DNA of 63,892 nucleotides, filler included, from Sluysia triapertura (taxonomy: Eukaryota), in assembly GCA_046118255.1 (NCBI GenBank). It is 5 parts of 5 records of this genome, joined end to end, with 100 filler letters (N's around TTAATTAATTAA, not from the genome) between each part and the next. Parts side by side here need not be neighbours in the genome. Positions count along the whole stretch, not along the records: positions 23,438 to 35,269 come from JBJNIA010166147.1; 4 more parts are not named here. One strand, given 5' to 3'. The position numbers were made by a program, and so were the translations under genes. Under the pieces are notes generated by a model. That model saw only the letters and a list, made by a program, of their open reading frames with translations. It was not told where the DNA came from and did not search any database. Numbering within the stretch: position 1 is the first letter of the stretch; each line of letters starts with the position of its first letter. This document shows positions 1 to 59,998 of this stretch, in pieces.

Positions 1-219
1 TGAATGGTGTGATGAGTGACGTTGTTTTATGTGATGAATTTTTATTTTATTATTAAGTTAAGGGGTTGGCCACTACATATTTATCGTGAATTAACTGTTT
101 AAGTTAATTTCTTGTTAATAGATTTTACGTACGGATCTATGAAAAGATCCAATAATTATATAGAAAAGTTTGAGTATGAATTTACGTTTGATACTTTACA
201 GTATCTCCCTTAAAAATAA

Positions 220-8300: not shown

Positions 8301-8357
8301 CTTGATATCATTTAGTGAAATTATATTGGCCCGGTAGTCACTTTGGGTTGAACATAA

Positions 8358-8447
8358 CTTGTTTAGACTGACACAAAAGTATTTAATTTAGAAGGTAATA
8401 TCTCCATACAGTGTGGAGATCGTGTTTTAATATGAGTGCTATCATGG
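8358..8447 (+). mobile_element. Tc1/Tc3-like transposase relic inside the ACC intron
   Basis: Reads LV*TDTKVFNLEG...QCGDRVLI*, resembling the motifs xxWSDEKKFNLDG and GGGSVMVW, with stop codons at both Trp positions. Confidence 0.35.
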
Positions 8448-9048
8448 GAAGTTACATAAGTTAAAAATTTTGGCTTAAACAGAAATTTATAAATTTTTTT
8501 TTTGATTGTAATTCGCTAAACCTTAATATTTTTATTAATTTTTCCAACTATATATGATTAATCGCTCTTTTATTTACAATTTATTGATATAATTTTCCTT
8601 ACTTCAAATAATGAGTAAATTCTCGGTGTTCTTATAATCATTGAAAAAAATGTACATTTAATTTTATGAATATAAATATTATAAGATAATCTTCTAATAA
8701 CGAGAATAGATGTAAGAACGTAGTTTTAAAAATCAAGAATTTGAAGCTGCAATTACTATGTATTGAAGTAATATTGAACAAAGCTTAATACTTTCAGAGT
8801 TTACGTGTACTCTTATAGGCTGGAGAGTTTTTTCAATAGAGAATATGAAGTAGCAGTAATAAAATTTATTTAAGTATATAATAATTTTGATAAATAATTA
8901 TATAATAAATACATTTTTATAATTTAAGAATTTAAGTAAATGTAAATTATATAATTATTTTAACTTTACATTAAAATGTTCAGTTTAGGTGCTTTTATAT
9001 TGATTTATTTATTTAATCTGTTTAATAAATTAAAATAATTTCAATTAG

Positions 9049-9478
9049 AACAATGATGAATCGGATACCAATAAATTTTCCCACTTTTACCATACGTCAA
9101 GGTACCGAGTCAGTAGAATCATCAATAAACTTATTAGAAAGTCCAAGTGCACAAACAACATATGTTTGTACTAATGCGGTATGTTCTATCGACAAAAAAC
9201 ATGAATGTCAAGAATCATGCGTTCATACAATTGCAGATAATTCTCAAATTTCTTTTCCAGAAGTTAATAAATTAATTGCTACTAGTTTAAATTCAATAAA
9301 TCAACAATACGTATTCTTTGAGAATATGGCATATGAAAATTTTATACATGAAAATCTGCTGGATGATCGAAATTCAATTAGTTCATTACATGGTAGTTTT
9401 ACAAAGTTAGATTATCAATCGCCACCTTGTGAACGAATGGGTTTAATGGGTGCTTTTAAGAATTTAAATCAGTTTGAA
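9049..9478 (+). CDS. ACC: Acetyl-CoA carboxylase exon (regulatory loop to PPCERMGLMGAF), runs into the gap
   Basis: Acceptor TTAG at 9048. The phase-2 junction AG|A gives Arg and is in frame with ORF 9053. SPPCERMGLMGAFKNLNQFE resembles ACC TPPCQRMGGMVSFRTFEDF. Implies a 6.7-kb intron (2326-9048). Confidence 0.88.
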
Positions 9479-9658
9479 NNNNNNNNNNNNNNNNNNNNNN
9501 NNNNNNNNNNNNNNNNNNNNNNNNNNNNNNNNNNNNNNNNNNNNNNNNNNNNNNNNNNNNNNNNNNNNNNNNNNNNNNNNNNNNNNNNNNNNNNNNNNNN
9601 NNNNNNNNNNNNNNNNNNNNNNNNNNNNNNNNNNNNNNNNNNNNNNNNNNNNNNNNNN
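9479..9658. other. Assembly gap (180 N)
   Basis: Run of N interrupting the ACC exon. Confidence 0.99.
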
Positions 9659-10783
9659 ATGATCTAATAAACCAATTTTATGATGTTTTATTATTTCTAC
9701 AGGCGTCTAATTTCTGAACAATATACTTAATATTGTTTATGATTTAATATGGTTTATTTTTTAAATGTTTGAGATTGTTTTATTTTATTGAAACACCTTA
9801 TTTTTAGCAGTTTATTGTGATTTTTGTCTTATATTTTCACATAATTATGATTATCTTCATCATAGAACAACTTTGAAAAACTTAAGTATGAGAAATTATT
9901 TCATCAATAAGATATTTTGGCAATTTTTCATTTTAATAAAATAATCAAAGTAAAGTTATTATAATAAAGTTATAAAGTTATCAAAATAAAGTAATTACAA
10001 ATCAAATTAATTTTACTAACATTTTTGATACATTTCATTTATTTACAGTAATAAAATTGAAATAAATGTAGCACTGTTTTTACTGTACAATCTTTTAATA
10101 TATTTTCATTAAAATCACAAAATAACTATCATGTCATGATTTCCAAATGGAACACCTAAAAACTATTTTGTTCTTGAAATATTTTTTATACCTTTGCATT
10201 TACTCTAATACAACCCACAAATGATATATTAAAAACATACTTCACTTTATGAAAGTTTGTCTGGTGTGGATTTAAAGTATTGTTCATGAATTTCAACGTT
10301 ATTATCTTGTCATGGATACACAAATACGTGCCAGATTTGTAGCTTTTTCATATTCCTTAATATGCTGAGTTTAAAGTATTAAAAAATGAACACTTCTAAA
10401 CATTAGTATGATTTTTTCAAAAATTTTGGAATAGAGTAATTGAATAGGTAAAGTTATTTTAAAATATTACAATTTTTAAAATTTTTACATAATGAACGAT
10501 AAAAATAATATAATATGGACCAGTAAGAAAAAAACAATTCAAAAACAAACTATACAATAAGATTTGTTTTTAAATAAATAAAATTCGCAGTATATAGATG
10601 ATCAAATAAAATAACATTTTGAACGAAAATAAATTAAATTAAATTAGAAACTTTAAAAATAAAATTTGTCTTAAGACATTTTATATTTTCTTTTTCAATC
10701 AGTTTTTAGAAGATAGTTATCATATTTTGTCATGAGATTAATAATAAAATTGAATAAAGATTTTAAAAATGTTATTTTTTAAC

Positions 10784-10856
<73 letters not shown>
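10784..10856. repeat. (ATT)n microsatellite at a contig end
   Basis: Perfect ATT run ending at the linker. Confidence 0.95.
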
Positions 10857-10956
10857 NNNNNNNNNNNNNNNNNNNNNNNNNNNNNNNNNNNNNNNNNNNN
10901 TTAATTAATTAANNNNNNNNNNNNNNNNNNNNNNNNNNNNNNNNNNNNNNNNNNNN
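10857..10956. other. Artificial contig linker (44N-TTAATTAATTAA-44N)
   Basis: The same 100-nt structure occurs four times; the 12-mer carries stop codons in all six frames. Confidence 0.97.
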
Positions 10957-11740
10957 ATTGGATGAAATTGAAGAGTTAAAAAGACAAATTAAAGGAATTC
11001 TTAATAAAATTGTACCTCAAAATTTTGATTACTATCTTGATAATTTCGTTAAATTAAAGACTGGAATTCAGGAAGGAATCAGATACTTTTTTAAAAGAAG
11101 TAAAAAAAGAAGTTTATTGTGTTATTTTTGCAAAATTTGTTTTTATTTATTAAGTAATAAAGCAGATGTGCCAGAAAGTGAAATTGTTTTAATTATATGC
11201 GTGCAATAACAATAAAAAAGCCCAGTGAAGTGAATATGGATAAAGAAAATAGTAAATTTTGGAAGGAGTTAATGCTTCCTACTGAAATAAAAAAAGATGC
11301 GAAGTTGATTGAACAAAGAAAGAGGTTTACATATATTTTGCAATTAGATATATTTCATAAGAAATTAGATTATATCTTAGATCAACAGTTAAAAAGAAAT
11401 TTTTCGTTGTTATCCATTAAATCAATTACGAATGATGTAAAAATTTATAGAATAGACCAAAAGCTGCTATCGGCAAGCCAATACTCTAAGGAATCTCCAG
11501 TAATTAGTCTATCGTCAATCAGAAAAACAAGAAGCCATATATGTGGAATTACCGAGAAATCTCTAACAATTGGTAAGCTGTTTGACATGCACGAATTAAT
11601 AATTATAGGTGTAGTCTTGACCGAAAGGCGGGAAATCATATATGTGGAATGACTTTTAGTGCAGTTTCTAGAAGGTTAATGCTAATCATCCAAAAGAAGA
11701 ATTATCGCATTTGTAATAGATTTTTTATGTTTGATGTTTA
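10957..11740 (+). pseudogene. Decayed eIF4G/MIF4G-domain-like sequence
   Basis: RQIKGILNKIVPQNFD resembles the MIF4G start RKVRSILNKLTPQMF, and TIGKLFDMHEL resembles FIGELFKLKML. The two parts are in different frames, with stops and no intact ORF. Confidence 0.55.
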
Positions 11741-14111
11741 AATTTTTCTTATATTTCTGAAATATTGTCAAATTAAAGATTTTTATACATATGTAAGTGT
11801 TGTTTTAGAAGGGTTGGATAATTCGACCTTGATATTTACCTATCGAGTAAAATATTTACAGTGGAATCGAGACGTAATTTTGAGTTGTCTTATCTCGAGT
11901 TTGAAATTTAATGTCAACAATAATTTTGAAATAACTATTTCTAATATAAAATTGAAATTAATCCTGCAATAATGTTCCTGCTCTAAAGAGAGTTACAGAC
12001 TACGTAGTTTGTGGAGTTTATCGATGGCATAAAATTGTTTACTTAAGTCTTGTAACTAATTTTCTAACCAACACCCAAGTCAAAGAGGAACATTATTTGC
12101 ATAGTATCGAGAGTGAGTTTGTAGACTTACGAGTCCATGGTGTTATTTTTATTCGATTTTGAATTTGATTTTGAATTTAATTTTGAAATTAACTTGCGAT
12201 TTAGATCCTGGTATGTTTGTTTTGTTTGTTGATGTTGAGTGCACGATGCATCGTTGTTACAATAATCTTACTTGGATGATGTATCTCCACAACCCGGTCA
12301 TCGAACTACACTTCTTGAATAGTTCTCTTATTCTCATGTTTTATCGTGCAGATGTGAATTTTTATCACGAATTTAACAATTTAGGTGATTTTAAAGTTAA
12401 AAGGTTGGACAAAATTAATAGTTACTCACCTGTCGAGGCGGGTATAAAGTTTTAAATAAATTTAAAATCAATTACAGTTACATTATTGTTTGCCTTTTGT
12501 ATGATTTTCTTATCATGTTTAAACCTGATGGCATAACCTATATTGTTCAAAATTTTGGGAAGAGTGCACGTTGTGGACTGATATTCGATAAACCCATGAT
12601 TTATAACGAATGTAAGTCTTGTACCATTATGGTTGTTAATTTTTTTAGTGTGTCAACAATTTTTGTCAATTTCATTTTATTTGTATATAATAAAAATTTT
12701 TCACTTTACTTTTATTCAAAAACTTTTCTTCATAAAGAAATTATCGAGTGCCTTAAGCACCGATATTGTCATGACTGTAGACTTTACGTAAATAAAATGA
12801 GTAACAAAAGTGATGGCAATAATTTTAATTCCTTAAATAATAAAATTATATCCACAATACCATTAGCAAGTAATTTTATTTTGTTAAGGTTGATTCGCCA
12901 CTTTGGAATCTAAAACTACACTTAAAATCTATTTTTATTTTATGTAACACCTTAAGAAGGGTTACGAAATTTCAATATAAATTTCATAACAACCAACCGA
13001 GATTGAGTTGTATCACATAAAATTTTATTATTATTATAACTTATTATTTTTGAGTGTAAGTAAATTATTAGTTATAAAATTTCAGTAATAAACCTTAGTG
13101 AGTTTATTCTTTTAAATAAATTAATTCTTTTAAATAAATTGTTTTTTTGAAGAAGGTTTGAGGTATTTTTAAATTCATATTTTTGTTTTAAAGCAACACC
13201 TTTAGAAGGGTTGCCCAAATATAAACTCCATAAAAAATTAAGTGAGAAATTTATTAAGAAGTGATGTTCAATTGTTGTTATACATTAAGGTATAGGCAAA
13301 AGTTTTAGGTTAAGTATAAGTAATAAAAATCCTAATAATGCGTCCCTAATAGTGGTATAAATCGTACATATTAGGCGAACTGACTCCTTAGATATTTTGT
13401 AAGATGAAGATTTAATAGAAATATTTGCAATTACATCTCTGTAATTATATGTAAGATTATACGATTTATAGGAATATAAATGTGAAATGAAATTTAATGC
13501 ATTTTTATTGAAGTTTGTTGATAAATATAGAAAGTCTATTTTTCAATGTACAAATGACTTTCTCACGATTTATGTACCATCAACATAAAAATTAAAACAT
13601 TGTTAATATATCGCCACGCGTATATTATTAATTATTTTCTTAAATTATGGCAAATATTAACTAATTCCTAAAAATATGATTTTAACAATCTACAGTATTT
13701 CGTCGTTAGCTTCATTATATTTTTTATGTATTTTTCATGTAAAATACTGAATTTCTGAAGATGAAATGTGGTCCAAAACTTTAAAGACTAGAAATTTTAT
13801 TTATAAATTTTTATTTATAGACTATTAAATATATAAATTTAATATTTTGAGTAAATGGGTAATATTAAAAAAGATAATCTTTTGAATTTTATAAAATAAA
13901 TTTTAATTTATAAAAATAACATTATAGGTCGAATTTATAGACATATAATGCTTTTCCGGTATTTAAAATAAAAATAAACTGGTACGTTTTATGAAAAAAA
14001 TGTATAATGATTAATTAATTATTAATTTAATTATTAATTTAAAAATCTGTTACTATATTTAGGATTGTTGGCAATATAAATAAGGACTTATTTCGCATTA
14101 TATTTAGTGTT

Positions 14112-21479: not shown

Positions 21480-23052
21480 GTACAAAAAACTGTACTTAAT
21501 TACAATATTCATAATTGAAACTAAAGTTTTTATTTGTTTACCAAATGTCTAGAAAAAATTAGAGTATCTTAAAACATTTCATGTAATATAGAATAATACA
21601 AAATCTTTGGTTTAGATGTTGTATTAGTTGATAATTGACATAATTATTATATTAGTAATTATTTATTATTATTATACATTATTTTATTAGTAATTTAGCT
21701 GTTATGTATTATATGGTCATAATATCTATTTCCATTTCGATAATAATGATAATAATAATAACATTAACCTTTAATAATAACAAAAAAAATTTAAAATTTC
21801 TTTACAAGTTACTGCAACGTGCGAAGTTGCTTTTATTGGTTGATTATAAATACGTTACTGAAATTAGAAATTATCATCACCAAAAATTTTAATAATCAGG
21901 GTGATTTTAAAAACCACAAATATTTACAAAATATTCATATTGCAATCATTTACAAATGAGTCGTTTGAAAGAGTTATCATAAGAATTGGAACATCATGGT
22001 GGATCAGTTAAAGTAAGCGAAATGGATTTCACAAACGGTGAAATAATAGTTCAAGTAATGTTTTTATGAGTAATGGTTTCATTTCACCAACAAAAGAAGA
22101 TTTAATCACCGGAGAAATAAAGTTATTTATGCTTCGGATTTCAAGATACAGCAGATAATAATGAATTCATCCAAAATTATAATATATAACACATTATAAA
22201 TTTACGCAATTTTGCGCCTACTACTTTAGCGATAACTGCATTTCTTAGTCATCTATGAACGTGACTGACGACAATTTCGATTTATATTCTATTGCACCTG
22301 ATATATTGGAATGCATAAATAAAATGAACAAGAATTATTCATGAAGTTATCAAATTGATCAAAATAAAGTTTATGTAAATAAAGTAAAGTGTATTCATGA
22401 AGTTATACTAGCTTCAACTGATAAATTAATTTCATATAAAGTTATCCAATTGAGCAATGTTAATAAAGTTAACCAGATCTATGAAGATTTACAGATTATA
22501 AGCAACATATTCGTTCACGAAGAGAAACCTAAAATACTTAACGTAATAGAATAGTTTTACCAGTGTAGAAAATTTATACCAGTCAACAAATCGATGTTTA
22601 GTTTCGTATATTTATCGAAGGATGCGTTTACAAAATTGAAGTTTCTTTTAATTCGGTTCCTAATATCTATATTTTTCTTTGATTTTTAATGTCAATATGT
22701 TTTGTGATAAGTTTGATACAAAATATAATAGACTTTAATCATTATTTTCGTTTAATTCAAAAAATAATTCATTATTTTCATATAAGTATACCATTTAAGT
22801 TCCTTAATTATTAATATTCAATGCGTATGCTAATGCATATGTCATTAAAATTTCGTACAGATTTTGCCAGAATTCGTGTGTCCATATTTTTCTAATATTT
22901 AAAATTACACTTGTTTCAATACTATAATACCGTTTTTGCCGAGGTGAGATATTATTTCATACTAAAAAAATTATAAGAAAATAATATGAGTAATAATTGG
23001 TAAGTTATTTTATTTAATGAAAAATAGATAATATTTGATAAAATAATTTCAG

Positions 23053-23298
23053 AACGAAATTAAACCGATTTCTGACAAAACGTCCGTTAGCAATGTTGTC
23101 TGTCCTGATAAGAAAACGCAGTGTGACGATGGATCTACTTGCTGTCAATTTCTTGATAGTAGTTATGCATGCTGTCCTTTACCAAATGCAGTGTGTTGTA
23201 ATGATCATTTACATTGTTGTCCTTCAGGAACTACTTGTAATTTATCAAGCGGAACTTGTGATAGCCACAATGGACCTGTTATGACTTTACAGAAAAAA
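23053..23298 (+). CDS. GRN: Progranulin exon 3: complete 12-Cys granulin module (gene continues past the contig end)
   Basis: Acceptor TTTCAG at 23052; VVCPDKKTQCDDGSTCCQFLDSSYACCPLPNAVCCNDHLHCCPSGTTCNLSSGTC is the canonical granulin C-C-CC-CC-CC-CC-C-C pattern; donor GT at 23299. Confidence 0.96.
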
Positions 23299-23337
23299 GT
23301 TAATATTTATTTTAAATTATAAACTTTCTCATATATT

Positions 23338-23437
23338 NNNNNNNNNNNNNNNNNNNNNNNNNNNNNNNNNNNNNNNNNNNNTTAATTAATTAANNNNNNN
23401 NNNNNNNNNNNNNNNNNNNNNNNNNNNNNNNNNNNNN
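23338..23437. other. Artificial contig linker
   Basis: 44N-TTAATTAATTAA-44N. Confidence 0.97.
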
Positions 23438-24960
23438 TGTTGCAACTAAACAGTACTAGAGTTAACTTCATGATCCATAATGATAATTTCTTCTTTTGAG
23501 TTTTTCAAGTCGCGTGAAGGACAATTAAATTTCCAATAAAATCCACTAGTTTTAATATCCATACACTCGAAAAAGTAACAATTACCTTTGCAGATCATTC
23601 TATCACTTTGGTCACAACTCACAGACAATATATGCTTTTTTGTGGTTGCTATTTCCCTTGGTTTATGGATACTTTAAGGCATGTACATTCTAATACATTC
23701 TATAAGAATTTGTAAACACTACTACATAATCACAGGAAAATATTCAGTTGAAAAATAAATTCATATAATTTTTTAATTATTAATTTACATTTTATATTTT
23801 AAATTAATTATAATTTTATATCGTTTAACATTTTCATTAAACTTATATGCAAAATAAAAATAGCGTATTAGTTGCCGAGGATAAATATTTTGATAATGGT
23901 GAGATAAATGTTGTTATTAAAAAGAAAATATATCGAAGTTGAAGGTTTTATTTATTGAAACAGATTTAATGTTATTATGAGAAAAGGTAAAACTAAGTAC
24001 TTCAAACGATGCATTATAATTGTTTATGAAACATTTTGCAGCATTTGTAAAAATAATCATTAAATTGTCTGTATATTTGTTGCTTTGAGACTTCCCTGGT
24101 ATAAAGGTATTTACACATGAAATTGCCGCAATTGTGAAATTGTGCCAGAATATCGAACGTGACAACAATAACTGTAATAATAATATATAATAATAATAAT
24201 AAGCTTAATAATAATAATAAGCAAATAATAATGATGATGGTGCTTTATCTCCGAAAGACGCATTATCATATGGACATTAATTATTTATAAAAATACGTTC
24301 GTTTAAGTTATCTTAATAATTAAGAATAAAATTGTGGTGGCCAACCTTTTATTCAAAATTAAAATCATTCTTTCTCACAAAATAGTACATCTCACAATAT
24401 CTTATATTTCAGCTTTTGACCAATGAAAACCTTAATTCTATTTTTCAAAACACTCAACCCATAATTCTTTAACATTCAACCAAAATTATATTCATTAACA
24501 CAGCACAATTACTTTTTCAGAACTTATAAAAACCTCCTTTATGCGTTATTTTTTAGATCTACTAAACCTATTCTCATGTCAGAACATTTTAAAATTACAG
24601 TTTTACAACACTAAAATCACATCTACATTCAATACTAATAAAGTACATAAAATTCTCTCGAAACATTTTAAGTCACAATTTCACATCATCAAAATTACAA
24701 TTCACAGTTACAACTATCAAACAAACTTTTCAGATTTTATCTAAAATATCTCAGTTCTTAATTCTTTCACATTCATTAACGAAAATTATCAAACATCTAA
24801 ACAAAAAATTAATTTAAAATATCGCAAACCTTATTCTCATCTTCCCAAAACATTTTAATTCATAACTTTAGATCAAAAAAACTACATTTATATCACTACA
24901 TTTATTTAAAATTCACCAGAAACATTTTATTCATAGTTCCATATGTTATTATTATTATTA

Positions 24961-25841
24961 TGAAACAAAAAATAACTCGCATAAATCTTGCCTTTATAAA
25001 TCTTAAATACATGATCTTTTCTTTCTAAATCTTAATTTCTTACATATAAAAATAAAATTGGGGAATAAAAACTATTGATATTATGTGAAGGAGCAACGGT
25101 AGCGTGGTACACTATGTTTCAGTTATCGTTGTTGCTTCATCATAAGGAAATGAATTCTTTAAAGCTGTATTAAATTTATTTCGAAGCTAAAAGGAATGAT
25201 TTAAGTTGTAAGTGAAATGAAGGATGTTAAAATAAATTCTTGAGATTTATTTAAAGTTTGTAGTTGAGAATAAGATTTATGCACTGAATATAATGGTTTA
25301 AGAGACTGGTTAAAAGGTTATATTTTATCACATTTAAAAGACAATTACAAAATAAATCTTAGCGTGTTTGCAATGTTGTTATAGAATGTTGATAATGGTT
25401 ATGTGTAGAAGAAATGGGTTTGAAATAGTATAATTGATTCGAGATTGTGATGTAAATATTTTCTGTTTCAGGTACTTGTTAGTGTTGTTGAATGGTGTTA
25501 ATGTATTTGTAATTTAAATATTATGTGTTGTGGTTGTGGCTTGGTTTGAGAGAATGACTATTGAGTGTATGTTATGGATTATTCGGTATTAATTATCAAA
25601 GTATAGTGTGAGGTCAATGATTGAGAGTGTTTGGGATGTATATGTTGTTGAATTATTATAAATGTCGAATATCGTTTATGATGAATCAATTCATGTAATT
25701 CGATAGTGTGGAATGTGATTGATTTAGATGTTATATTTTTTATGTAAACTATTTCTTGTAATTTAATAATGTTAAGTGTGATTGTGATTTGAATGTTGTA
25801 ATGTTTTAGTGACTTTTGAATTATGGGTGTTGGCCACTACA
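24961..25841 (+). repeat. ~880-bp TG..CA interspersed repeat, copy A (solo-LTR-like)
   Basis: Shares long exact blocks with 33873-34750 (TGATATTATGTGAAGGAGCAACGGTA; TGTTGCTTCATCATAAGGAAATGAATTCTTTAAAG; TTTCAGGTACTTGTTAGTGTTG); ends GTTGGCCACTACA; preceded by (ATT)n. Confidence 0.85.
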
Positions 25842-27429
25842 GTAACAACTAAAACGTTAAGTACTTTTTAGCAGTCATCTTTTTATTTTTAGAAGCCATA
25901 CTTTGATTTTTCAACATTTTACATAAAATTATTAACATTTTGGTAAAAAATTTTCCTTACTTAATTTTTTAGCAGCCATATTTTTTGTCTTTGGGTTAGC
26001 CTTATTGGCTAATTTTTATTGGGTTATTCGGATTTAGAAAAAGATGTATAAACATAAATGAACATGTAAAAAATGTATGAATTGGATCATTTTTGTCTTT
26101 TTTGTCTTTTATGGAAATTTATTACTAAAGTGTTACTTTAAGGTTTATGAAATTGATTTTGTGTTTGAATTGTTGTGATGAATGGTGTTTATTGATTTCG
26201 TTTAAGCATAAAATTTAAATAAAAGGTTGAACTACCACACCCTCCGTCCAGAAGTAGGTGTCGCATTTCTTTATCAAAATAAATCAAATCCAAAAATAAA
26301 ATATATTTTATTGAAATATATCTACAAATATTGTTTCAGAGAAACTTTTAATGTCTTGTACTGAATTGATGTCTTTTTTACATATTCATAAAGTCCAAAA
26401 TCAAAATTTATGGAAATTGGAAGCTTACCAAATCTTTTCATAAGATGCACTTTATTATTGTTACCTTCATTTACTATCATGGCTTCTATCATACATTGCT
26501 GGTGCGAAAAAACTTAATCAAAGTATCATATTTGAATTCAGAGTTTTCAACACTTCGTCTTCGGTTTTGCAAGCCTGTTGTTTTTATAAAAAGTGTTTTT
26601 AAAATGACACTTTCAAAGCAAAGCCGTTTTTTCTTAATTTTTGAAAAAATCGAACATTTATTTCTGGACAGAAGAAACTACTTATATACAGTCGTATGCA
26701 AAAGTTAAGAAATGCAATTTGGAATTAAGAACGTTTTTCATATTTCTTTCATAATTACAGTTAAATCATAATATTATAAATAGTTTATAAATGGCAAATT
26801 TGAATGAAATACTTACTAAAAATATGATACCTAAATACAACAGCTTTTCGTCATTTCTCAAGTAATTTATTAATAACTACTTTCGTAACAAAAATATATT
26901 TGAATCGAAACCTCTAATCTTCCTTAAAATCTTGATTACTAACAAAACAACAACGAATCCAACTAAAAATAAACATACTTTAATTTCAAAGCTTCTGCTC
27001 GAAACCTTAAATCATTTCTTTACTGCAAAAAATGAACAATACTTAAAATTTAATTTTGATTTCACTTTCGAAAAGCATATTTAATTGGAATGTTAGAAAA
27101 ATATTGTACTTTACTTTTATTACGTATTAAATGACTGTCAGGAATGATCATGAATGTTAAAATATCCTAAATTAAAAAAAATTAATTATTTTGTATATTT
27201 ACAACTATGTTTAAAGCATTAATGAATGTAAAAAAAGAATCAAGATGTAGAATTTAAAATATCACCTAAATTACAATCACTCAACTCGAAGTTATTTGCA
27301 AACACAATTTGTCGAATTGGAACAAAGAATTGAAGACATCTGAAGAATACATGAATTAGAAAAAGCAATATAAGTTAACGAGAAACAAATAACCATCAAT
27401 ATCAGATCTGTTTAAAATTAAATATCGCA

Positions 27430-27700
27430 TCAACAGTCGTGATAATTACTTGGAAAAACTGCCTTATATAGGCACATGAAAAGGTTATCTTTTTACTAAG
27501 AATTTAATTACATGAATACCACAGTTGAAACTATCAAGTGTGTACGATGCATCAACCAAGAAGAATAGTTTGGGCTTACCTCAGTATGCTCGATTAGATC
27601 GACAAATGCTCGTGCCGATTTGGAGAATAAGTCAATTGATCATATATTTTTGACCAATATTTCATTACATGTATAGGAAGATGAAAAGCTCATAGTAATA
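27430..27700 (+). mobile_element. BEL/Pao-type retrotransposon pol relic
   Basis: LKLSSVYDASTKKNSL resembles the BEL/Pao motif TKLRVVYDASAK..SLN; surrounded by stops. Confidence 0.4.
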
Positions 27701-28668
27701 TTACTACCCTTTATTAGTGTTTATATCAGAAAGAAACAGCCTTGATAATTTCGTTAATAAAACAATTTCATTCTATGGATATTTCAGATCTAACTTTGGC
27801 GATTTATGTATGTATCATTTTATAAAATTATCACGTTTTGATTACCTGCTTATATTTGTTAATATGAACTTAGTTATATATACTCAAGTTATATCTAATA
27901 TCATCAAAATTATAAAACCTTACAATGAGATTCATGAATATAAATTTGAATTTTGTAAAATTAAGTCGAATTGAACTTTAAGCTCAAGGATAGATATTTA
28001 ATGATGAAGTTAATTTTGGAATATTTTATTTTAAAAATAACAAATCAATTGTAACTTTAAATTTAAAAGTTTGAATGTGCTTAACCGAACTCTTAATGTC
28101 TAGTAGTAATTTCGTTGAAATTTATCTGCTTTATAGCTAATAATATTATTGTGTGCTTTATTATTATAAAGTTTTATCTGGATAAATAAATCAAGATTCG
28201 AAAATTTTAATTATTATTGATAACGTAAATTTCATATATTAATCTATTTTGCAAGTAATATCCATACTCTATATATTATATTTACCTTATCTGGAAGTGT
28301 GAATTCGAATACTCGTCTCAGATATTCGAGATATAAGTGCAAACACTTTATCTTTTAAAGTGTTACTAATTCTATTTATCTAAGATTTACTCTTGCTCTA
28401 TATATCGCTATATTTACTAAGGTTTTTATCATGATAAGACTTTCTTCAGTTGTTTTTGACTTAATTTTATAACCACTTAGTAGTTTAAATTTATATAATC
28501 TTAAATGCTTTAAATTATTCGATGTTACTTGTGTACCTTTAATCTTTAACTTTATTTTAATTCCTTACAATCCGCTGTATTCCACGCATACTATAATTTC
28601 AGTTCCGAATTATTTAAAACAACTTAAATTAAATAAAAGAATATGTTCTAATTATATTTTATAATTAC

Positions 28669-28687
28669 ATTATTATTATTATTTTCA

Positions 28688-28735
<48 letters not shown>

Positions 28736-28760
28736 CATTATTATTAATTATTAATTATTA
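28669..28760. repeat. Imperfect (ATT)n microsatellite
   Basis: Read directly from the sequence. Confidence 0.85.
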
Positions 28761-30265
28761 GTATTTTTATTAATTAATTTCATCATAATGGTATGTAACC
28801 ATTTCAAATTTAATAACTTAAACTTAAAAATAGAACAGTTTTTAATTAATCTACATATGTCACCATCTCATAGTCATTTATTTGTTTACGTCAAAATTTG
28901 CATGGTGACAGGCAATTGCTTTTACTGGTTAATGAAATTTTCCGTATCTACTCTATAATTTGTTGATTTTGATTATGTTAAAAATAATAAGCTACACAAT
29001 AATTTATTCTCAATTCAAAAATCATTGTTAAAAATCGTAATAATGAAATTACAATCATTTTAATTTTATCCACAACATTTTAATGTTAATCCATCTTTAA
29101 AGATACCTTTTATATTGAAAAATGATGAACTCAAAACATACTCTTGACAATGGTCCTAATAAAGATTGTTCAATTGATGTGATTGTAAGCGACGCAATGA
29201 ATTTATGCTAACTATCAGTACTAATTCTATTAAGCAGAAGTATCACAGAATAAATTCAAAAGTACTGATTCATTTCTTAAATTGTGGTCATGAACTTGAC
29301 AATCACAATGGCTTAATGCGACCAATGATGTTACCAATTTTTTCATCGATGACTCGATTTAGAATCGTCGCATGAACCTATAAAATATATTCATTCAAAT
29401 GGTGATAATTACAATACAAAAATATTAAGAATAACCGCAACAGTAATGGAAAGTGATCATTATTATTATAAGTTATCCTGAAGACAAGATACATTAATTT
29501 TCATAATTAATCATTTTTATTTTAGCGATTAAGTTCCGTACCTTATAGATGATGGCGGAAATTTTAGATTCGAAATTTAGAATAAAATTTGCTATCATTG
29601 ACTTTCTTAATCTCCGATTTTTAAAGGAAATTTTAACTTCATCTAATAAAATGAAAAAGATCATAATTCTATCTAAACTCGTGATGAGATTATTTATTAG
29701 TGAAAATCATATTAAATCTAATAAGTTTTTATAACATGTCATTAATGCAATTGCGCTGTTAGTTTATCATGGATGTATAAATCTTAAATTTAATCTAAAG
29801 TCAAATAAGTTAATAAGATATATTAATATCTTCCAACATATTGTCGTGATCCTCATCGATGTAATGTTTAAAGATCAATGTCATATTATCAAAACAACTA
29901 TTGGGCACGATATGTTACATTGATTCCATTGACAACGTATTGAAACATAACGTTAAATATACGTTAAATATACAGATTTAATTTAAGTACGATATTTTTA
30001 TTTTATTTTATTTCTATTGATTCGTATATTAGTCAATTTAAAGCCCTGCCTGAGATATGTTCAGCAACATGTCAATATTTTATGTTTAGTAAAATTTTAA
30101 CATTAAACTTTTTAGTTATTATTTCATTAAACTTCAACTTCAATATGCGTTGTTTACATTATCTTTTTTATTCGATTTTGAGTAAACATAACTTAAACTA
30201 TAGAAATTATAAAAGTAATGTAAAAGTGTTTTTAAAAATGTAAAAATGTAAAATACAATAAAAGT

Positions 30266-31109
30266 TGTAGTGTTCAACACTCACAAGTTAAAATTTATCA
30301 AAACATTATACTTAACATACATAACCCAAAATTGCACTAAAACATAATTTCTAAAGCAATCACACTTTTTACTACATCAACTCAATCATCATAAACAACA
30401 CTTGACATTTACAATATCTTAACTACTCATATATATATATCAACAATTCGACTAGCACTCTCAACCATCCACTTCACAGTATACTCTGATAATTAATCCC
30501 GAATAGTCCACAACATTCACTCAAAAGCTATTTTATCAAACAAACCACAACCATAATATATAATAAAGAGACAAACACCATTTAACAACGTTAACAAGTA
30601 CCTTAGACATAGAAAGCATTTACATTAAAATCTCTAACCATCTACACCAAACTAAACCTACTTCATTTACACATGTTCATCACCAATGCTCATTTTGATG
30701 ACACTACAAATGCACTAGGATTTATTTTGTAATCGTCTTTTAAGATTAAACTTTAACCTTTCAATAAGCATCTCAAACTATCATATTCAAAGCATAAACC
30801 GTGTTATTAATTACAAACCATCAATAAATTTTAGTAATTTATTCTAACATTCCTCGTTTCAACTACAACTCAAATCATTCCTTTTATCTTTAGAAATAAA
30901 TATAATAAAGCTCTAGATAATTCATTATCTCAATACGAAGCAACAACGATAACCGAGACGTAACATACCTCATAACTGTTGTACTTTCACAGTATGTCAT
31001 CAGTTTTATTCCTTTTTATTTATTTACATGTAAGAAAAGTAAGAATTTAAAAGAACAGATCTTGTGAAGTCTTTAAAGATAAGGTTTATGCATTTTATTT
31101 CCAATAACA
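30266..31109 (-). repeat. ~850-bp TG..CA repeat, copy B (inverted, more diverged)
   Basis: Starts TGTAGTGTTCAAC. Contains reverse complements of copy A/C blocks (AACAAGTACCT, GAAGCAACAACGATAAC, ATGTAAGAAA) in colinear order; followed by AAT/ATT tracts. Confidence 0.8.
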
Positions 31110-31226
31110 ATAATAACCACAATGTTATTAACGTTATTATTATTATTATTGTTATTATCATTACTATTCTTCTTAATTTACCTAAATGTTAAAAATTTCA
31201 TTACTGTCGATCAGTCTGGTTACTGC

Positions 31227-31285
31227 CATCATCAGTGTTGATAGTCTATGTTACATTTCTCATTAGGCTGTCAGCTCTGATGACG
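31227..31285 (+). other. 59-nt hairpin H1 (22-bp stem, 15-nt loop), paralogous to 33726-33784
   Basis: CATCATCAGTGTTGATAGTCTA pairs with TAGGCTGTCAGCTCTGATGACG at 20/22 positions, counting G:U. Confidence 0.75.
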
Positions 31286-31337
31286 GTCAGTCATCAGTTA
31301 TTCTGCACAGAATATTTCAATTAAAAATTTTCATACT

Positions 31338-31394
31338 TCATCCAATCGAGACAAAATTCTGCATTTAACAATTTTAAAGGTCTCGATTGGATGA
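31338..31394 (+). other. Hairpin H2 with a perfect 15-bp stem containing CCAAT
   Basis: TCATCCAATCGAGAC-(27 nt)-GTCTCGATTGGATGA. Confidence 0.8.
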
Positions 31395-31481
31395 CCAATA
31401 ATAAGCGACAAAAAATCAAAAATAGAGAAATCAAAAATTTTATAGTTTTCAGCAAAAGTTTTTAAAAAGTAATAACAACGA

Positions 31482-32800
31482 GTGAATTTTATAAGAGAAT
31501 TTTGTAAGAAATTTACAAAAAAAAGAAGAATTATATCTCAAATACGAATCAGTAAATTGATGATCGGTGCTAATGTTTTGCAGACCTTCTCGGTCTTTGG
31601 TAAAGTAATATCACAGGATTTATTTTCTCATTCCGATGACCACAGTATTCTTAATATCATTAATGAAAAACATCCTAATCCAACTGTTAACGATTTAAAC
31701 ATGATAGCAATCTCCAAAACCATACCGCGGAAATTTACAGCAATTTTTAATCTCACAAATAGCGCAGAAATTCATTTGATACCGTTCGGGCCTCCCAATA
31801 TGTCAAGTAGTCAATCACTACCTACTCATCTTCATCTTAGTAGAGATTATAAGCCAACAGAATCATCTAAAGATATAAATTTCTCAATGCAAGAACTGAT
31901 AATGATTAATCATGATTACGAACTTGTTTATAAAGACCTGTATCTACTTAATGCACTATTAGATTTAATCCGCTGTCATGAATTGATGGATTATTTTGTC
32001 TTTAATATTCGTTTTTTTATTCATTCACGTACCTACGACTATAAAATCTTACAAAATTAAACAAGAAATAAAAATGAAGAACATAGAATATTCATGGCAT
32101 AACAATTTAATGTATCTGTCATCGACTGTGGATAGTTACGCGAATTCATTGTTGAAGATGCCACCAGATTCTATGATATATTCTCAAGTTATCTAGCTAG
32201 TCAAAATTTTTAACAAAATACTCACCAGTAATCAATGGTATTCCAATGTTGGCAATAATGATCCATTTAAAATACAACGCGTTCGATTCATAATTAGAAA
32301 TCTAGAAGTTGACGTGGCAATGACCAAAATTGTTTAATCAAAACAATACTTCGGCTACAATAGTCTTGATCGAACAATATCAGACAACAATGCTTTATTC
32401 CATTTACCACATCGTGATCAAAGATTTAACAACAATAAAGAATCCAATCCATGTAATGTGTATAAAAAAGGCATCGATATCTACATCCAATCAAACAATG
32501 TGTTCTTCTCAACAATTTACTACTAAGTCGGTTACCCATTAATGAAATGTTCTACAGAGAATTTACAAAGTTTGTCTATAAAATTTTTTACCATAGTCAG
32601 TTCGTTAATGTAAGCTTTAATTTTTTATATGTATTAACATTTGTTTCAGTTCATAAGCATAGAATCTGGATCAATGAAGCGCAACGGGGTTACCTACATT
32701 GTAATGGCATTACAAGAAAAACGAAAGTACAAGATGTAACTGTAAATATTAGAATTGTCTGCTTGTCTTTTAAACATACATCATTAGATCTTTTGTTAAT
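31482..32800 (+). pseudogene. Decayed ORF of unknown family (192-aa open segment followed by frameshifted fragments)
   Basis: Run of overlapping + ORFs (31482, 31996, 32330, 32547) in a locally GC-richer segment. Possible 40-nt GTAAG..TTTCAG intron at 32610-32649. No motif recognised. Confidence 0.5.
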
Positions 32801-33189
32801 ACAATTTACTTCTGAATTTTTTTGGTTTATGTTAAATAATAAATTAATTTTATATTATGTTACTAAAATAAATGTAAATAAAATTATCAATGATTCTCGA
32901 TTACGATCTTTTAATTAATAGTTAAAGATAAGAACAATACTAAATCTTTAAAATATCACGAAGTTAAGGAACCTAAGCGTATCAAAACTAGAAAGGACAC
33001 ATTCCAAAACAGCAATGTAACTTTATTTAAAATTCAATACAAGCTTAATGATAAAATGATATTTAAGGTGTTAAACCAATTACATATCTAACTCTTGGAA
33101 TGTATATTAATCCTTTGTTTGAACAGCAGTTGACTAAACTCTTAGTGAAACATAATACCGAAAATAGTTATATATATCCTAAACTCGTG

Positions 33190-33506
33190 CTATCCATAAA
33201 ATGGCGTCAGGGAACTTCTCAAATCTATCACACGAGAACATCCCCATATTTGCTTTGTTTTTTGCTTTCGATCTAAGTAAAATTCATTAAAGTCGTTAGA
33301 ATGCTTCATAAACTTCTTTGCCAGCAGTTTACTACTTGGTTTTAAATTATCATTATCAAGAGTAGTAAATTCTATCAACGTCTGGATATAAAATGATTCA
33401 ATCAACCTTTTTAATTTATATGAATATCCGGCGTAAAATTACACATAAAAGTAACAAATTTATTTGATCGTAAATAGATTGTTTTATCTGGATTAACAAT
33501 AAGTCG
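33190..33506 (-). pseudogene. Decayed convergent ORF of unknown family
   Basis: The frame of ORF 33405-33190 extends upstream across one TAA (RLIVNPDKTIYLRSNKFVTFMCNFTPDIHIN*KRLIESFYIQ...). Confidence 0.35.
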
Positions 33507-33620
33507 TCAAAAATTACGTGAATAAACAAATGTATTTGAATTTGTATAATATTAACAATTGAAAGTAAATATTGTGAGTTTATTGTAGTTTTTTAATTAG
33601 TTAAAATATTGTTTAGCTTA

Positions 33621-33784
33621 CCAAATCAGAGTCTTTGATAGTGTGTTTGATTATATGTACTCTGATTGGGTGGCGAACAAAATTGGCTGAGAGAAAAATG
33701 AGAGATGATAAAACTGATGATTGACCATCATCAGTGCTGTCACTGCAATGTAAAATGTGACATACAGTGTCAACATTGGTGATG
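33621..33784 (-). other. Inverted paralogues of hairpins H2 (33621-33670) and H1 (33726-33784)
   Basis: 33712-33784 matches the reverse complement of 31227-31299 at 57/73 positions without gaps. The stem CCAATCAGAGT/ACTCTGATTTG mirrors H2. Confidence 0.75.
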
Positions 33785-33817
33785 ATCGTCATTTATAAAA
33801 ATTTGTACTTTAATGAT

Positions 33818-33854
<37 letters not shown>

Positions 33855-33872
33855 TATTACTGTTATTATTAT

Positions 33873-34750
33873 TGTTAACAATATAACGCATAAATCTTGT
33901 CTTAAATAAAATTACAAGAACTTTTATTTTTAGACCTTCATTTCTTACATATCGTTGTAAAACTTAATAACAAAAACTGTTGATATTATGTGAAGGAGCA
34001 ACGGTAACGTGGTAAGCTATGCTTCAGTTATCGCTGTTGCTTCATCATAAGGAAATGAATTCTTTAAAGTTGTTTTAAATTTATTTTTTGGAAATGAGAG
34101 AATGATTTGAGCTGCAAGTAGAATAAAGAATGCTAGAATAATCTCTTGAGATTCATTCAAGGTTTATAATTGAAAATACGGTTTATGCATTGAGTGTAAT
34201 GGTTTAAAATGCTTGTTAATAGGTTATAGTTTATTTGATTTAAAAGACAATTACAAAATAAATATTAGCGTAATTACAATGTTATTGAAGAATGTTAATA
34301 ATGATTATGTGTAGAGGCAATGGGTTTAAATTAGTGTGATTGATTTGTGATTGTAGCGTAAATGTTTTCTATGTTTCAGGTACTTGTTAGTGTTGCTGGA
34401 TAGTGTTGATGTATTTGTAATTTAAAAATTATGTGTTGTGATTGTAATTTGGTTTAAGAGAATGACTATTGAGTGAACGTTATGGATTGTTTTTCGTATT
34501 GATTATCAAAGTATGGTGTGTGATGAATGGTTGAGAGTATTCGACGAGTTGTTTTTAAAAAGTATATATTGTTGAATTATTATGAATGTCGAATGTTGTT
34601 TTTGATTGATGATCGGTTAATGTATTATATAGTATGAAATGTGATTGATTTAGATGTTATGTTTTTTGTAAATTGATTGTTGTGGTATGATTGATATTTA
34701 AAATTGTGGGATTTTTAGAAAATTTAGAATTGTGGATGTTGGCCACTACA
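33873..34750 (+). repeat. ~880-bp TG..CA repeat, copy C
   Basis: TGTTAACA...GTTGGCCACTACA; colinear with copy A; (AAT)n tracts on both sides. Confidence 0.85.
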
Positions 34751-34753
34751 GTG

Positions 34754-34765
34754 AACAACAACAAC

Positions 34766-34820
<55 letters not shown>
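34754..34820. repeat. (AAC)n/(AAT)n microsatellite
   Basis: Read directly; it explains the poly-Leu ORF 34657-34863. Confidence 0.95.
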
Positions 34821-35269
34821 GAAACCCATAAATATTGTAAATAATGTTGAAAATGAAAATCATTTTAAATAAAAGTGTATCTAAAAAACAACAAATTCAA
34901 AACGTATTCAGAAACATCTTTAAACAGCATGGTTGAATAGTTAATTAGCTTCATCATGGATCAAGCACTGATACTAATAAAATGTGAAAATGTGATAGTA
35001 AAATGAATACTAGCAGACACAAATACATATTAACTATCAAGGGGCAGATAAGTGAATTAAGTACATAGTTAGAATTATAATACACACTGTAAAATATATT
35101 ACCAATAGGGTTTTGAGCACTCCGGACAAAACAGAATTTGGCGCCCTTTCATACAAGAATATACAAATTTACTGCGAATTAAAAATAATAGTTAAAAAAG
35201 GCAAAAAAATCAAAATTACACAATAAAGAACTGTGTAAAAAATTTATTTATTTAAAAAATAATACAATA

Positions 35270-35369
35270 NNNNNNNNNNNNNNNNNNNNNNNNNNNNNNN
35301 NNNNNNNNNNNNNTTAATTAATTAANNNNNNNNNNNNNNNNNNNNNNNNNNNNNNNNNNNNNNNNNNNN
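35270..35369. other. Artificial contig linker
   Basis: 44N-TTAATTAATTAA-44N. Confidence 0.97.
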
Positions 35370-36070
35370 AGAATTAACATTTTATAAAAGTCAAGAATAA
35401 TTAATATTAAAAGTTTCTTATACATTTTTTAACTAAAAAACGTATTAACCATTAAAAAGAATTATTAGAAAGAAAATATAGTTGTTGACATCCCTTACAC
35501 AAAGATATTAAAACATATTTGCAACCTAAAACTATTTAAATTTTGAGAAAAAGTAGATTTCTTGGAATTACATTAAAGGATTAAAAAGTTAAATAGCACA
35601 GTTATAATTATCAACCCTACTACGCACAAAAAGTTCTTTTGACCTGCAGATATCACTTGACAAAGCTTTAAAATCCTACGCAGACGTCCATTCTAGGTAA
35701 ATCATTTGACGTAGGCGGACCCAAAATCTAAAGTTATTATTTTTATAATTGTTCAAGGGTTAAGAGAAAACTGAACAGTATTTAAGGGTTTTTAATTTTA
35801 ATTTTAATTTTTAATATCAAAAAATCCACAAATTTTATTGATGAATTATTTAATAATTATTTTCAAATATAATAATTTAAATTTAAAAATTCTTCTAAAA
35901 TGTACTTCTAAATTGAGTCCGAGAAACTGTTTTGTATAAAATGCATCTTTCGAAAAATGATTAGAAAACTTAAATATTTCTGTTTCACTACTCTTACTTA
36001 CTAATGTTGATTTAAATTTATCCTCTTATTTGATTGCTGTTTTAATCTGAAATGTAGTACATTTTTTACC

Positions 36071-47400: not shown

Positions 47401-49269
47401 CTATACAGGGAAATTACTAACAGTGCATGCATGTAATTAGAAAAATCAGTACATAATAAAAAATCCTAAGTTTTACTATTACAACAATATTAAACACACA
47501 CAAATTTAACATTGCATGGCAAACAGGACTAATTCGACAATTAATGAGTATTCTTAACAAATATATAAAATTTAAACTATCGATTGAATGAATTTAAATC
47601 TTTGATTTTTAATGTTTAAATTGGTGTAAGCCATATTAAATAATTATATTAATAATTCATTTGAAAATTGAATTGTTTTTAGAAACTCGTTAATACTCTT
47701 AAATGAAGTAAATCAAATGTTAACATAAATTTTGCTCAAATATAGATAGATCATTAGCACTAGCATTACTGCTACTACTACAACCACCACTTTTTAATTA
47801 TTTCCTTTAATTGCGACCTTGAATGTCATTTTCATAATCAAAAAACTGAATTTTTAAAAGTCGATCTGATCAATAATTTTGATTATCGATAAACTATCGA
47901 ATTCATTTTTTAATGTTGTTGAAGTTCTACTTAATTGTGGTACTATTTAAATTAATATCAATCCAAATACAAAAGTAACTACTAAAAATTAGTTGATTAT
48001 CTGTGGAAAGAGAGTTACAATTTGGAACATGTATCATGTACCATGCGCAAAAAAAAATTAAATACATTTGTTTTAGTTTTATTTGATTCGTATAATTTGT
48101 ATATTAAATGGAGAAAGTTATTTTATTTAGATATCTCATTAAATTTTTCTGGTGAAGTTATATATAGATGTAGCTTTCAGTATCCACATGTTTAAAGGAA
48201 ATTTAAAGGTCAAGATTATAATAAATGAAGATTCTCTTCGGTACGTTTTCTATTTTAGTTATGGATTTGACAAAGATTTTGACGTCAATTGTAAATTTAA
48301 ATTAACTTATTTTAAGTCATCAAAAGTCAAATGTGATATTTTTATTCAAACATTAATTAAAATAGTGTAAAAGTTTGTATTACTTTTAACATTCCATCTT
48401 AATTTAAAGCATTCAACAGAACGGAACAAAGATAATATATTACACCTTCATGAAAATTTATGAAACAATATGTTTGATAATGTTTGAAAATGTTTGATAT
48501 TTAAATTAATACAAGATTTTAAACTTTTCAGAAACATTTAGGATGAATCTTCGTTTAATTCCACATCAATATTAGAAAATACTTCGTAAATATTCTATGA
48601 CGTACAAAAGTAGATGGGTTAACATATTCTCGCAAAAAATAACCAAGTGTTAAATCTGGAAATATTCGATTGTTTTCTTAATTAAGAATTACTCAATTAT
48701 ATAATTTTTAATTTATGATAAATTTTGTGATAAACATAGATTTGAAAAAATACTGAAAGTATTTTATTGTAACATTAAAACTATTAAGCCCTTAATTTGG
48801 CTGTCATAAATCTTACGAAATTAATTTATTCAAACTTCAGAAATTAAATACTAGACACAACGTATTTCAGTCTAATACAAACAATTTAAAGCAACTTTTC
48901 CAGAGTTTTTTAACACATCTTAAAATGTATATACAACTTAGGGGATAATTATTATAAACTTCATATTTTTAAACTTCAGGACTAACCACCTAAATTAAAT
49001 AATTATTATTAATTGCCTTAAATATTAACAAAAGCACCACAATTTATAATTGTCAAGAATACTCATTATCTGAAGTTTTTACACTTACACAAATATTTTT
49101 GCTCTTTATTTTACTCAATTAATCTTTTAAATATGAAATTCAAAACAAAAACTTCGATAAATTTAAATGTTTTTTGATATTTATAAATTAAATACATTGT
49201 CAAAATGAAAGATTTGTGTAAAAGCTTCTTGAAATGTAAAAAAATAGAGGTATACAATTAATTAATTAC

Positions 49270-49731
49270 CGATTTACCAGCCCAGGCAAGCCATTCTTCT
49301 AGCGTATCAGAAGCGATTTGTTTATTATCTCGTTTATAAAGTGTTGACAACAATTTTAAAGTCATCATCAAAGCTATTTTGTTTTCTTTGCTTTTAGATT
49401 TCATTTCAAATCCAAATGGCGGTGGTTGATTATCTAAGTCTAATACAGTTCCATTGGTAGATACAGTGTTTATCTGATTATTATCCGAACTAACCGGAAC
49501 AACTGATACAAAAGATTCATCTGCACCTGTTTCTGCTGTAGTTGTATTGAGAGTATCAACAGACATTGATAACTTACGAGTACGATCTCGCTCTTCTGCT
49601 ATAACCCAGATAGGTTTACTCTTCGTATCACGTTCCATACCACTCCACTGTTTATTAGAAGCTTCAGTCAGGACTTCTTTTAATAAACTTTCAGCTTCCC
49701 GTAATTTGCCTTGTTTCAAATATGAATTTGC
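49270..49731 (-). CDS. KLC: Kinesin light chain TPR5-TPR6 exon
   Basis: ANSYLKQGKLREAESLLKEVLTEA..KPIWVIAEER and TLKLLSTLYKRDNKQIASDTLEE match KLC [34 protein letters not shown] and [23 protein letters not shown]. Acceptor TTATTAG at 49732; donor GTAATT at 49269 (unspliced, the stop is at 49258). Confidence 0.92.
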
Positions 49732-51191: not shown

Positions 51192-51478
51192 TAGGGTTAA
51201 TTAATCTATTGAATAACTGCTGTAATATATTAATAATTACATTATTTTGTTTGGTTTAAAAAAATCATGAAAAATTTTTATTGTCTAAATGACATCATCT
51301 AATCGTCTTGTTTTTCTGGAATTAGATTTTGTCATTTAGGGAAGTAAAAACTTTTCATGATTTATTTAAATCAAACAAAATAATGTAATTATTTAATTGA
51401 TTGGAAGATTACTTAATTGATTATTTAAACAATTATTTAAATGTTTGAAATAATTATTTAATAGACCTAAAAACCCTA
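51192..51478. mobile_element. Foldback MITE with TAGGG..CCCTA ends
   Basis: Outer inverted repeat TAGGGTT..TCTATTGAATAA / TTATTTAATAGA..AACCCTA; inner ~70-bp arms 51232-51303 and 51321-51393 are near-complementary. Confidence 0.7.
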
Positions 51479-59571: not shown

Positions 59572-59998
59572 TAAGGTGACCAGATGTCTCGCTTTTGGCG
59601 GGACAGTCCCGATTTTTCACAATTTGTCCCGCGTCCCGTGACGTTTTTCACAAGTCCCGACTTTTAGAATTAAGTTAAATTTTATATTTTTGAAAATCAT
59701 TGTTTTGCTTTCTAAGAATCCTACGGGCTGCGACGACTAACATATTGCTTTTGCTACCCAGTTACATTGTATTTGTCTCTCAGGTGATACACTTCGTGTT
59801 CGTACTGCGTGCTATCATGCTAATTAAACAAATAAATATTACAAATTTGCTACTTACCATAGAAAATTAAGGTAAGTCTTATGTTAAAAATAAAAAAAAA
59901 TTACGATATTACTTTTATTCTGTATGAAAAAATTTGTTGATACTTCTCCCTCCTTCACAGTTGTCCCGCTTTGCCCATCTAAAAATCTGGTCACCTTA
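59572..59998. mobile_element. hAT (Blackjack-type) non-autonomous element
   Basis: Perfect 14-bp TIR TAAGGTGACCAGAT / ATCTGGTCACCTTA with repeated subterminal GTCCCG motifs; no clear 8-bp target duplication. Confidence 0.85.

Follow-up and report, generated by a model that had tools for sequence, protein, structure and literature searches.

A mirror-symmetric 4.5-kb locus in Sluysia triapertura, best read as two opposed copies of a high-copy mobile repeat family with variable cargo

Results

Two homologous inverted arms enclose the locus

The DNA analysed here is a stretch of 63,892 nt from the Sluysia triapertura assembly GCA_046118255.1 (the window; all coordinates are positions along this whole stretch), with a GC content of 21–28%. 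At 30266–34750 it contains a 4.5-kb locus bounded by two inverted arms, B (30266 to about 31394) and C (about 33616 to 34750), of about 1.13 kb each (Table 1). Read inward, both arms have the same order, namely outer arm, (AAT/ATT)n tract, hairpin H1 at +956/+960 and hairpin H2 from +1073/+1078 to +1128/+1134. Self-BLAST aligned 30339–31299 with 33712–34665 in inverted orientation (68.5% identity over 998 columns, E 5e-99), and the B–C alignment extends from the sharp outer ends (30266 and 34750) as far inward as H2, which it includes. B and C are homologous inverted repeats, and the mirror layout is real: the order from each end, as described in an earlier note on this DNA, agrees with both the inverted alignment and the hairpin spacing. 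The same note had described the outer part as a closed repeat of about 870 bp (TG..CA). Its sharp outer TG end was found, but the repeat is not closed, as B and C run past the microsatellite through H1 and H2, and only a further copy, arm A, stops at the tract. Apart from the microsatellite, no tandem array was found within the arms. No target site duplication (TSD) of 4–12 bp, at offsets of 0–3, flanks B–C; GT (2 bp) is present at both ends, and a 2-bp match is frequent by chance.

Table 1. Features of the 4.5-kb locus and of the related ends elsewhere in the window.
Feature	Position	Strand	Remarks
Arm B, outer part	30266..31117	+	Starts TGTAGTGTTCAAC; C/A-rich read inward, GC skew -0.46
(AAT)/(ATT)n tract, arm B	31103..31168
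H1	31222..31297	+	Long hairpin with three TCATCAG/CTGATGA words; alternative short hairpin possible
H2	31339..31394	+	Inverted CCAAT-box pair: CCAATC at 31342 (+) and 31390 (-)
Left cargo, stop-free 194-codon frame	31476..32060	+	First in-frame ATG at 31560
Probable extension of the left gene, decayed	32061..32613	+	Several stops, at least one frame change
150-codon stop-free frame, probably 3' part of the left gene	32466..32918	+	Hydrophobic
Candidate right cargo frame	32890..33438	-	Multicopy DNA; 183 codons interrupted by 6 stops, with at most 82 aa open
H2' of arm C	33616..33672	-	CCAATC and a degenerate partner
H1' of arm C	33708..33790	-
(TAA)n tract, arm C	33819..33877
Arm C, outer part	33870..34750	-	Starts TGTAGTGGCCAAC on the minus strand
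Arm A, a further copy of the family	24944..25841	-	Does not extend past the (AAT)n tract; has neither H1/H2 nor ORF; nearest relative of C
Arm D	24333..24944	+	Terminal word TGTGGTGGCCAAC and skew in common; interior unrelated; adjoins A
End E, fifth terminus	8..77	-	Shares the 13-mer; cut by the window edge

A hairpin module with paired CCAAT boxes

On the inward strand, both hairpins fold better than shuffled sequences, with z-scores of -6.0 (B) and -3.4 (C) for H1 and of -6.05 (B) and -4.06 (C) for H2. H1 is identical at 59/79 positions between B and C and keeps 21/27 pairs (4 one-sided and 2 two-sided changes), with 6 broken. In B the inward strand folds better than the other strand (-34.4 vs -24.4 kcal/mol), whereas in C it does not (-29.0 vs -30.5 kcal/mol). 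A profile search (nhmmer) confined the module to arms B and C within the window. H2 precedes the left frame's first ATG by about 170 bp. CCAAT boxes and NF-Y are established promoter biology, and on that basis H2 is a candidate promoter element. An Rfam search with the hairpins gave nothing at threshold; as candidate microRNA precursors, H1 and H2 yielded sub-threshold matches only (mir-192, E 0.11, and mir-454, E 0.16). A hammerhead or small nucleolar RNA reading of the CTGATGA words was likewise dropped; it had no Rfam match, and the conserved GAAA is absent by eye.

The left frame is a decayed gene; the right frame does not exceed chance

The inward reading frame that the earlier note had placed at 31482 (+) is borne out. 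None of 1000 Markov simulations reached its 194 stop-free codons, and its coding-model path, which reaches 32190, scored 15.3 against 2.6 ± 1.6, with 0/200 shuffles as high. The left frame is thus a real decayed gene. Further downstream, the 150-codon frame was reached by 1/1000 simulations and has a codon score of -9.3, which is not coding-like; low stop counts in successive plus-strand frames over 32061–32613 link it to the 194-codon frame. It probably continues the left gene, and the region from about 31480 to 32918 is consistent with a single decayed gene of about 480 codons.

Homology searches gave no usable match for the left frame in Pfam (open frames and six frames with stops read through as X), for the 194-codon frame (ORF1) among the longer proteins of a 5.8-billion set, or for the left cargo among viral contigs and phages, and 31476–32213 had 0 matches at E ≤ 0.001 among 1.84 billion representatives. 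Residues 144–214 of ORF1 (31900–32060) weakly match Zip2 in the PDB (E 0.028), to which the larger searches lend no support; other pieces gave weak PDB matches only (E 0.69 and 0.35). No homologue of the 32466–32918 frame was found in Pfam, the PDB or the Atlas (top score 0.77). A single-sequence AlphaFold model was uninformative, with a predicted local distance difference test score (pLDDT) of 35. By eye, 32440–32500 encodes PCNVYKKG followed in the next plus-strand frame by RYLHP, resembling a CCCH finger that carries a deletion; Pfam gave no match to such a finger in six frames over 32380–32561.

The second frame of the earlier note, at about 33500 (-), did not hold up. Its longest open piece of 82 aa (P = 0.076), its low stop density (P = 0.14–0.31) and its coding-model path (P = 0.32) are not above chance. 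The right frame had no match in the PDB or Pfam, and the 82-aa frame none among the longer proteins of the 5.8-billion set. The left and right frames share no homology (tblastn E 0.66 at best, no informative self-match). The earlier note also raised an old inverted duplication of a gene plus its leader. For a host gene, this would explain the inverted homology of the leader region; we reject it in view of the unrelated frames, and rank it as the least probable explanation considered, given also that homology ends at H2 and that the arms have a sharp end and form a high-copy repeat.

Six read-through frames of the interior gave no Pfam match to transposase, integrase, gag/pol, helicase, polymerase or capsid. 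Convergent genes driven from terminal repeats are known from MuDR, and ambisense densoviruses combine a convergent layout of NS1 (HUH/SF3) and capsid genes with terminal hairpins. The layout of the locus is similar, but no MURA, NS1 or capsid similarity was found, the second gene is not established, and the hairpins lie 956–1134 bp inside instead of at the termini. Origin from an ambisense DNA virus that became endogenous, whether like a densovirus or like a Polinton and with inverted termini of great length, is thus highly improbable. Besides the convergent layout, it would account for the nearest Atlas clusters of ORF1, which are viral hypothetical proteins (0.87–0.88, below the 0.9 threshold for a lead and of low recognition), and for two weak PHROG matches of no known function (E 0.011–0.013); it does not account for the arms vastly outnumbering the interior, and the searches gave no match to a helicase, polymerase or integrase. 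The termini and TSD are also unlike those of Polinton/Maverick elements (AG termini, 6-bp TSD, polymerase and integrase; PMC6839031), none of which was found here.

The arms belong to a family with a common terminal word

Self-BLAST identified three related arms, A (24944–25855), B and C, with a direct A–C match of 77.7% over 936 columns, and an arm profile finds A, B and C only, so that the window offers no direct-repeat partner arm. A scan of the whole window for the terminal word TGTAGTGGCCAAC with up to two mismatches gave five ends, at 77 (-), 24333 (+), 25841 (-), 30266 (+) and 34750 (-), with unrelated flanks. All five share a 13-mer terminus in front of three kinds of interior and the pattern TGTNR (5/5); such a terminus may equally be that of a DDE element. 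The 4/4 complete arms are C-rich read inward (GC skew -0.46 to -0.62), while the alignment score of D against A, B or C stays within about two standard deviations of shuffles. D and A form a second inward-facing pair (24333–25841, 1.5 kb) without an open reading frame (ORF). The TSD search was negative for D–A and D–C, and by eye no TSD was seen around a solo arm. A CACTA reading of the ends was rejected because the homology lies on the arm side of them. A metagenome scan with the 14-mer end returned 119 stretches, taken as chance matches. By eye, arm D contains degenerate AAACATTTT-like repeats, and its contig depth is about tenfold below that of A-type arms.

Pairwise identities were 705/858 for A–C (82.2%), 632/826 for A–B (76.5%) and 612/832 for B–C (73.6%), and private substitutions numbered 53 in A, 148 in B and 86 in C, B being highest in 6/7 blocks. 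Along their length, B is hence the most divergent of the three, and the impression in the earlier note that copy C resembles copy A more than copy B holds.

In one run, arm depth greatly exceeds that of the interior

Sequence of this stretch occurs in two runs, neither of them recorded as RNA, of which X2 contains just a small part. Abundance was taken as summed contig depths in run X1, which may be the source sample; these depths are not copy numbers. Two unique bins had depths of 16–20. Depth was 22,381–35,991 across the outer parts of arms A and B, 6,656–13,204 across arm C and about 2,000 across arm D, compared with 314–1,170 in the B–C interior (314–571 in the bins of the right frame). 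This contrast indicates that the arms are very abundant, that the interior is moderately repeated and that most arms lack the B–C interior. None of the X1 contigs listed crosses the whole unit. The earlier suggestion of a mobile or viral element is accordingly supported in its first half for the arms, given their sharp common ends and very high abundance, but its second half found no support in the searches.

Other repeats and genes in the window

Depth also revealed further repeats at 34876–35260 (18,091), 28178–28571 (1,987) and 26200–26650 (about 880, with many internal joints). Just outside arm B, 28900–30150 is multicopy (330–478) with low-stop frames; 28900–29951 had no Pfam match in six frames. 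A self-inverted element resembling a miniature inverted-repeat transposable element occupies 59990–60680 (outer arms 93% complementary, 82% overall), and just left of it lies a motif that we take to be a hAT-like end. A small palindromic element at 51197–51428 is 78% self-inverted. The decayed frame at 27180–27720 contains VYDAS, presumably a BEL/Pao motif, and had no retroelement Pfam match. Host exons identified by Pfam encode acetyl-CoA carboxylase (ACC_central, 1030–2052), granulin (23047–23322) and tetratricopeptide repeats (TPR, 49258–49731), the last presumably kinesin light chain-like. Among ACC chains of solved structure, the ACC exon matches those of 2240–2407 residues at E 7e-81 and the others at E 1e-18 or weaker; with the former being human and the latter fungal, the host is very likely an animal. 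A search for homologues of the TPR exon, made to place the host, gave no match.

Discussion

The 4.5-kb unit is probably not one element. We consider it most likely, with modest confidence, that B and C belong to units of a single high-copy, non-coding mobile family that inserted separately and now sit tail to tail, each unit comprising one fixed end, a probable promoter module and variable cargo. The possibility that the outer arms are independent insertions, voiced as a caveat in the earlier note, is thereby the best reading, whereas its picture of one unit with two convergent genes gains little from the data: no TSD longer than 2 bp is present, the arms differ in subfamily, their decay does not match that of the left frame, and the right frame fails to rise above chance. 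The decay mismatch follows from the B–C distance (Jukes–Cantor 0.386), which corresponds to 0.193 per arm if the arms were identical at insertion. In 2000 simulations with the cargo assumed neutral, the 194-codon frame survived unbroken at arm-level decay in 1/2000 runs; this share rises to 3.8% with d set to 0.08 and to 29% with d set to 0.03. As the frame is unlikely to have outlasted such decay, the arms would have differed already while the left gene was intact. The left cargo being clearly coding-derived and the right at chance level further suggests different ages. In addition, arm A has neither module nor ORF, and by contig depth most arms would lack this interior.

Several observations weigh against the two-copy reading and its rolling-circle version. 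The decay simulation loses force if the left gene was under purifying selection. The module is present in both B and C at equal spacing and absent from A. The five ends alternate in strand (-, +, -, +, -) and thus form two inward pairs of less than 5 kb, an arrangement that independent ends produced in 1.8% of simulations over the whole window and 5.2% over an 11-kb patch. No search gave a usable match for the left cargo, leaving a captured host gene unsupported as its source. For neither the B nor the C unit was a far end with a 3' subterminal inverted repeat (subTIR) and stem-loop found, nor a conserved hairpin in the flank; the 9/13 inverted match at 33666–33678 lies beside H2 in C only, B having none, and is one of 6 relaxed matches in 2.8 kb. 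TT occurs within 4 nt of the terminus at 2/5 ends. Finally, the ends match the TGTNR pattern of Gypsy and Ginger (PMC2836005), and not a known Helitron end.

Because the five ends form two inward pairs, a single two-armed element is still conceivable. It would be a non-autonomous DNA transposon of Pack-TIR, foldback or Ginger-like type (TIR, terminal inverted repeat), whose intrinsically diverged 1.1-kb arms drive cargo inward, as those of MuDR do, and whose two TGTAGTGG ends are cut in trans by a DDE transposase or integrase. We judge this alternative tentative, and distinctly less probable than two copies. Apart from the pairing of the ends, the equal module spacing and TGTNR at all termini, it would explain why the entire interior is multicopy at similar depth (314–598 beyond the first bin), why the plus-strand frame ends at 32918 where the best minus-strand frame runs out (about 32890), and why GT occurs at both ends. 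It is difficult to reconcile with the arm-wide similarity of C to A, which exceeds that of C to B, with the decay mismatch and with the unsupported right frame; no transposase fragment and no 4–10-bp TSD was found. The animal Pack-TIR element Ssk-FB4 has arms of about 700 bp and a 9–10-bp TSD (PMC8277862), and the arms of the Mutator/foldback element Tm1 are on average 93% identical and built of tandem units (PMC3169594). These elements likewise are non-autonomous and have long arms round gene-like cargo, but they show 9–10-bp TSDs and near-identical arms, in contrast to the missing TSD and the 74% arm identity found here.

The termini also recall integrase-dependent elements. Ginger1 and Ginger2 have TIRs of 40–270 bp, a 4–5-bp TSD, an integrase and TGTNR termini (PMC2836005, PMC6839031), and the 5'-TGTNR of Ginger and Gypsy long terminal repeat (LTR) ends (PMC2836005) is that of all five ends here. 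Compared with Ginger, the arms are 1.1 kb long, and no TSD, integrase or primer-binding site (PBS) was found. The arms could instead be long LTRs of a Gypsy-type retroelement, the locus then consisting of two LTR-plus-cargo remnants in opposite orientation. The TGTNR start, the length of about 1.1 kb, the CCAAT boxes and the apparently intronless left cargo would suit such an origin, and the TIRs of Ginger have been proposed by Bao et al. to arise from LTRs in opposite orientation (PMC2836005). Unlike Gypsy LTRs, however, the arms are inverted without a direct partner in the window; the conserved CA-then-TGG primer site was found neither inside nor outside any arm, solo arms show no TSD by eye, and no gag/pol motif is present, which makes this origin quite improbable. 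Ginger, Mutator, Polinton and densovirus thus each fell on a defining test, and the LTR reading on those for a PBS and a direct repeat; the arm ends fully fit no tested superfamily.

For the two-copy reading, the combination of a fixed end, variable cargo, a missing TSD, a microsatellite and a common end word would fit non-autonomous Helentrons best (PMC4067079, PMC11417382). HINE/DINE-1 elements (HLE2) lack a TSD, share a short terminal word across unrelated interiors, carry a microsatellite behind the conserved part, reach very high copy numbers and occasionally transport gene fragments, and the arms, including those with cargo, resemble them in each respect. The 11–18-bp subTIR of HINE/Helentron (HLE2) elements may have a counterpart in the 13-mer at five ends with three kinds of interior, a word that could equally be a DDE terminus. 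In contrast to HINE, the conserved arm is 870–1130 bp long, carries a twin-hairpin/CCAAT module and is followed by more than 1 kb of cargo; no RepHel was seen. Since neither the 3' subTIR with its stem-loop nor the T-T site is demonstrated, we regard the family as most HINE-like in its working and do not file it as HINE. Keyword searches of open-access text found no published description of the arm family.

We propose the following hypothetical scenario for two copies, in which (i) the element would move in trans from its fixed end, taking along whatever follows the arm, with no fixed far end; (ii) the CCAAT pair and hairpin may serve as a portable promoter for the DNA behind the arm; (iii) the left unit would have decayed more recently than the right; and (iv) the mirror symmetry would reflect two neighbours in opposite orientation within a repeat-rich patch. 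Within this scenario, a rolling-circle, Helentron/HINE-like partner would be the best fit and is somewhat favoured, an integrase or DDE partner reading the TGTNR ends being the less probable of the two.

In summary, the locus is most likely a variant of gene-carrying non-autonomous transposons, and neither a new two-gene element nor a virus is demonstrated. Taken alone, the locus is a decayed remnant; greater interest attaches to its family. It is unlikely, though not as improbable as an LTR origin, that the locus represents an undescribed animal DNA element with TGTNR integrase-type ends, and 1.1-kb diverged arms, each with a structurally conserved hairpin and a CCAAT-pair promoter expressing cargo inward, that moves as a two-armed unit without a recognisable TSD. 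If so, the two-armed unit would act as a vector that shuffles genes and would exemplify, still living, the proposed step by which two opposed LTRs become TIRs, leading from Gypsy retroelements to Ginger DNA transposons, and two-armed copies, if real, would constitute a new transposon architecture. An abundant repeat that places an apparent portable promoter before orphan coding DNA would give an invertebrate a way to create new genes and to spread them.

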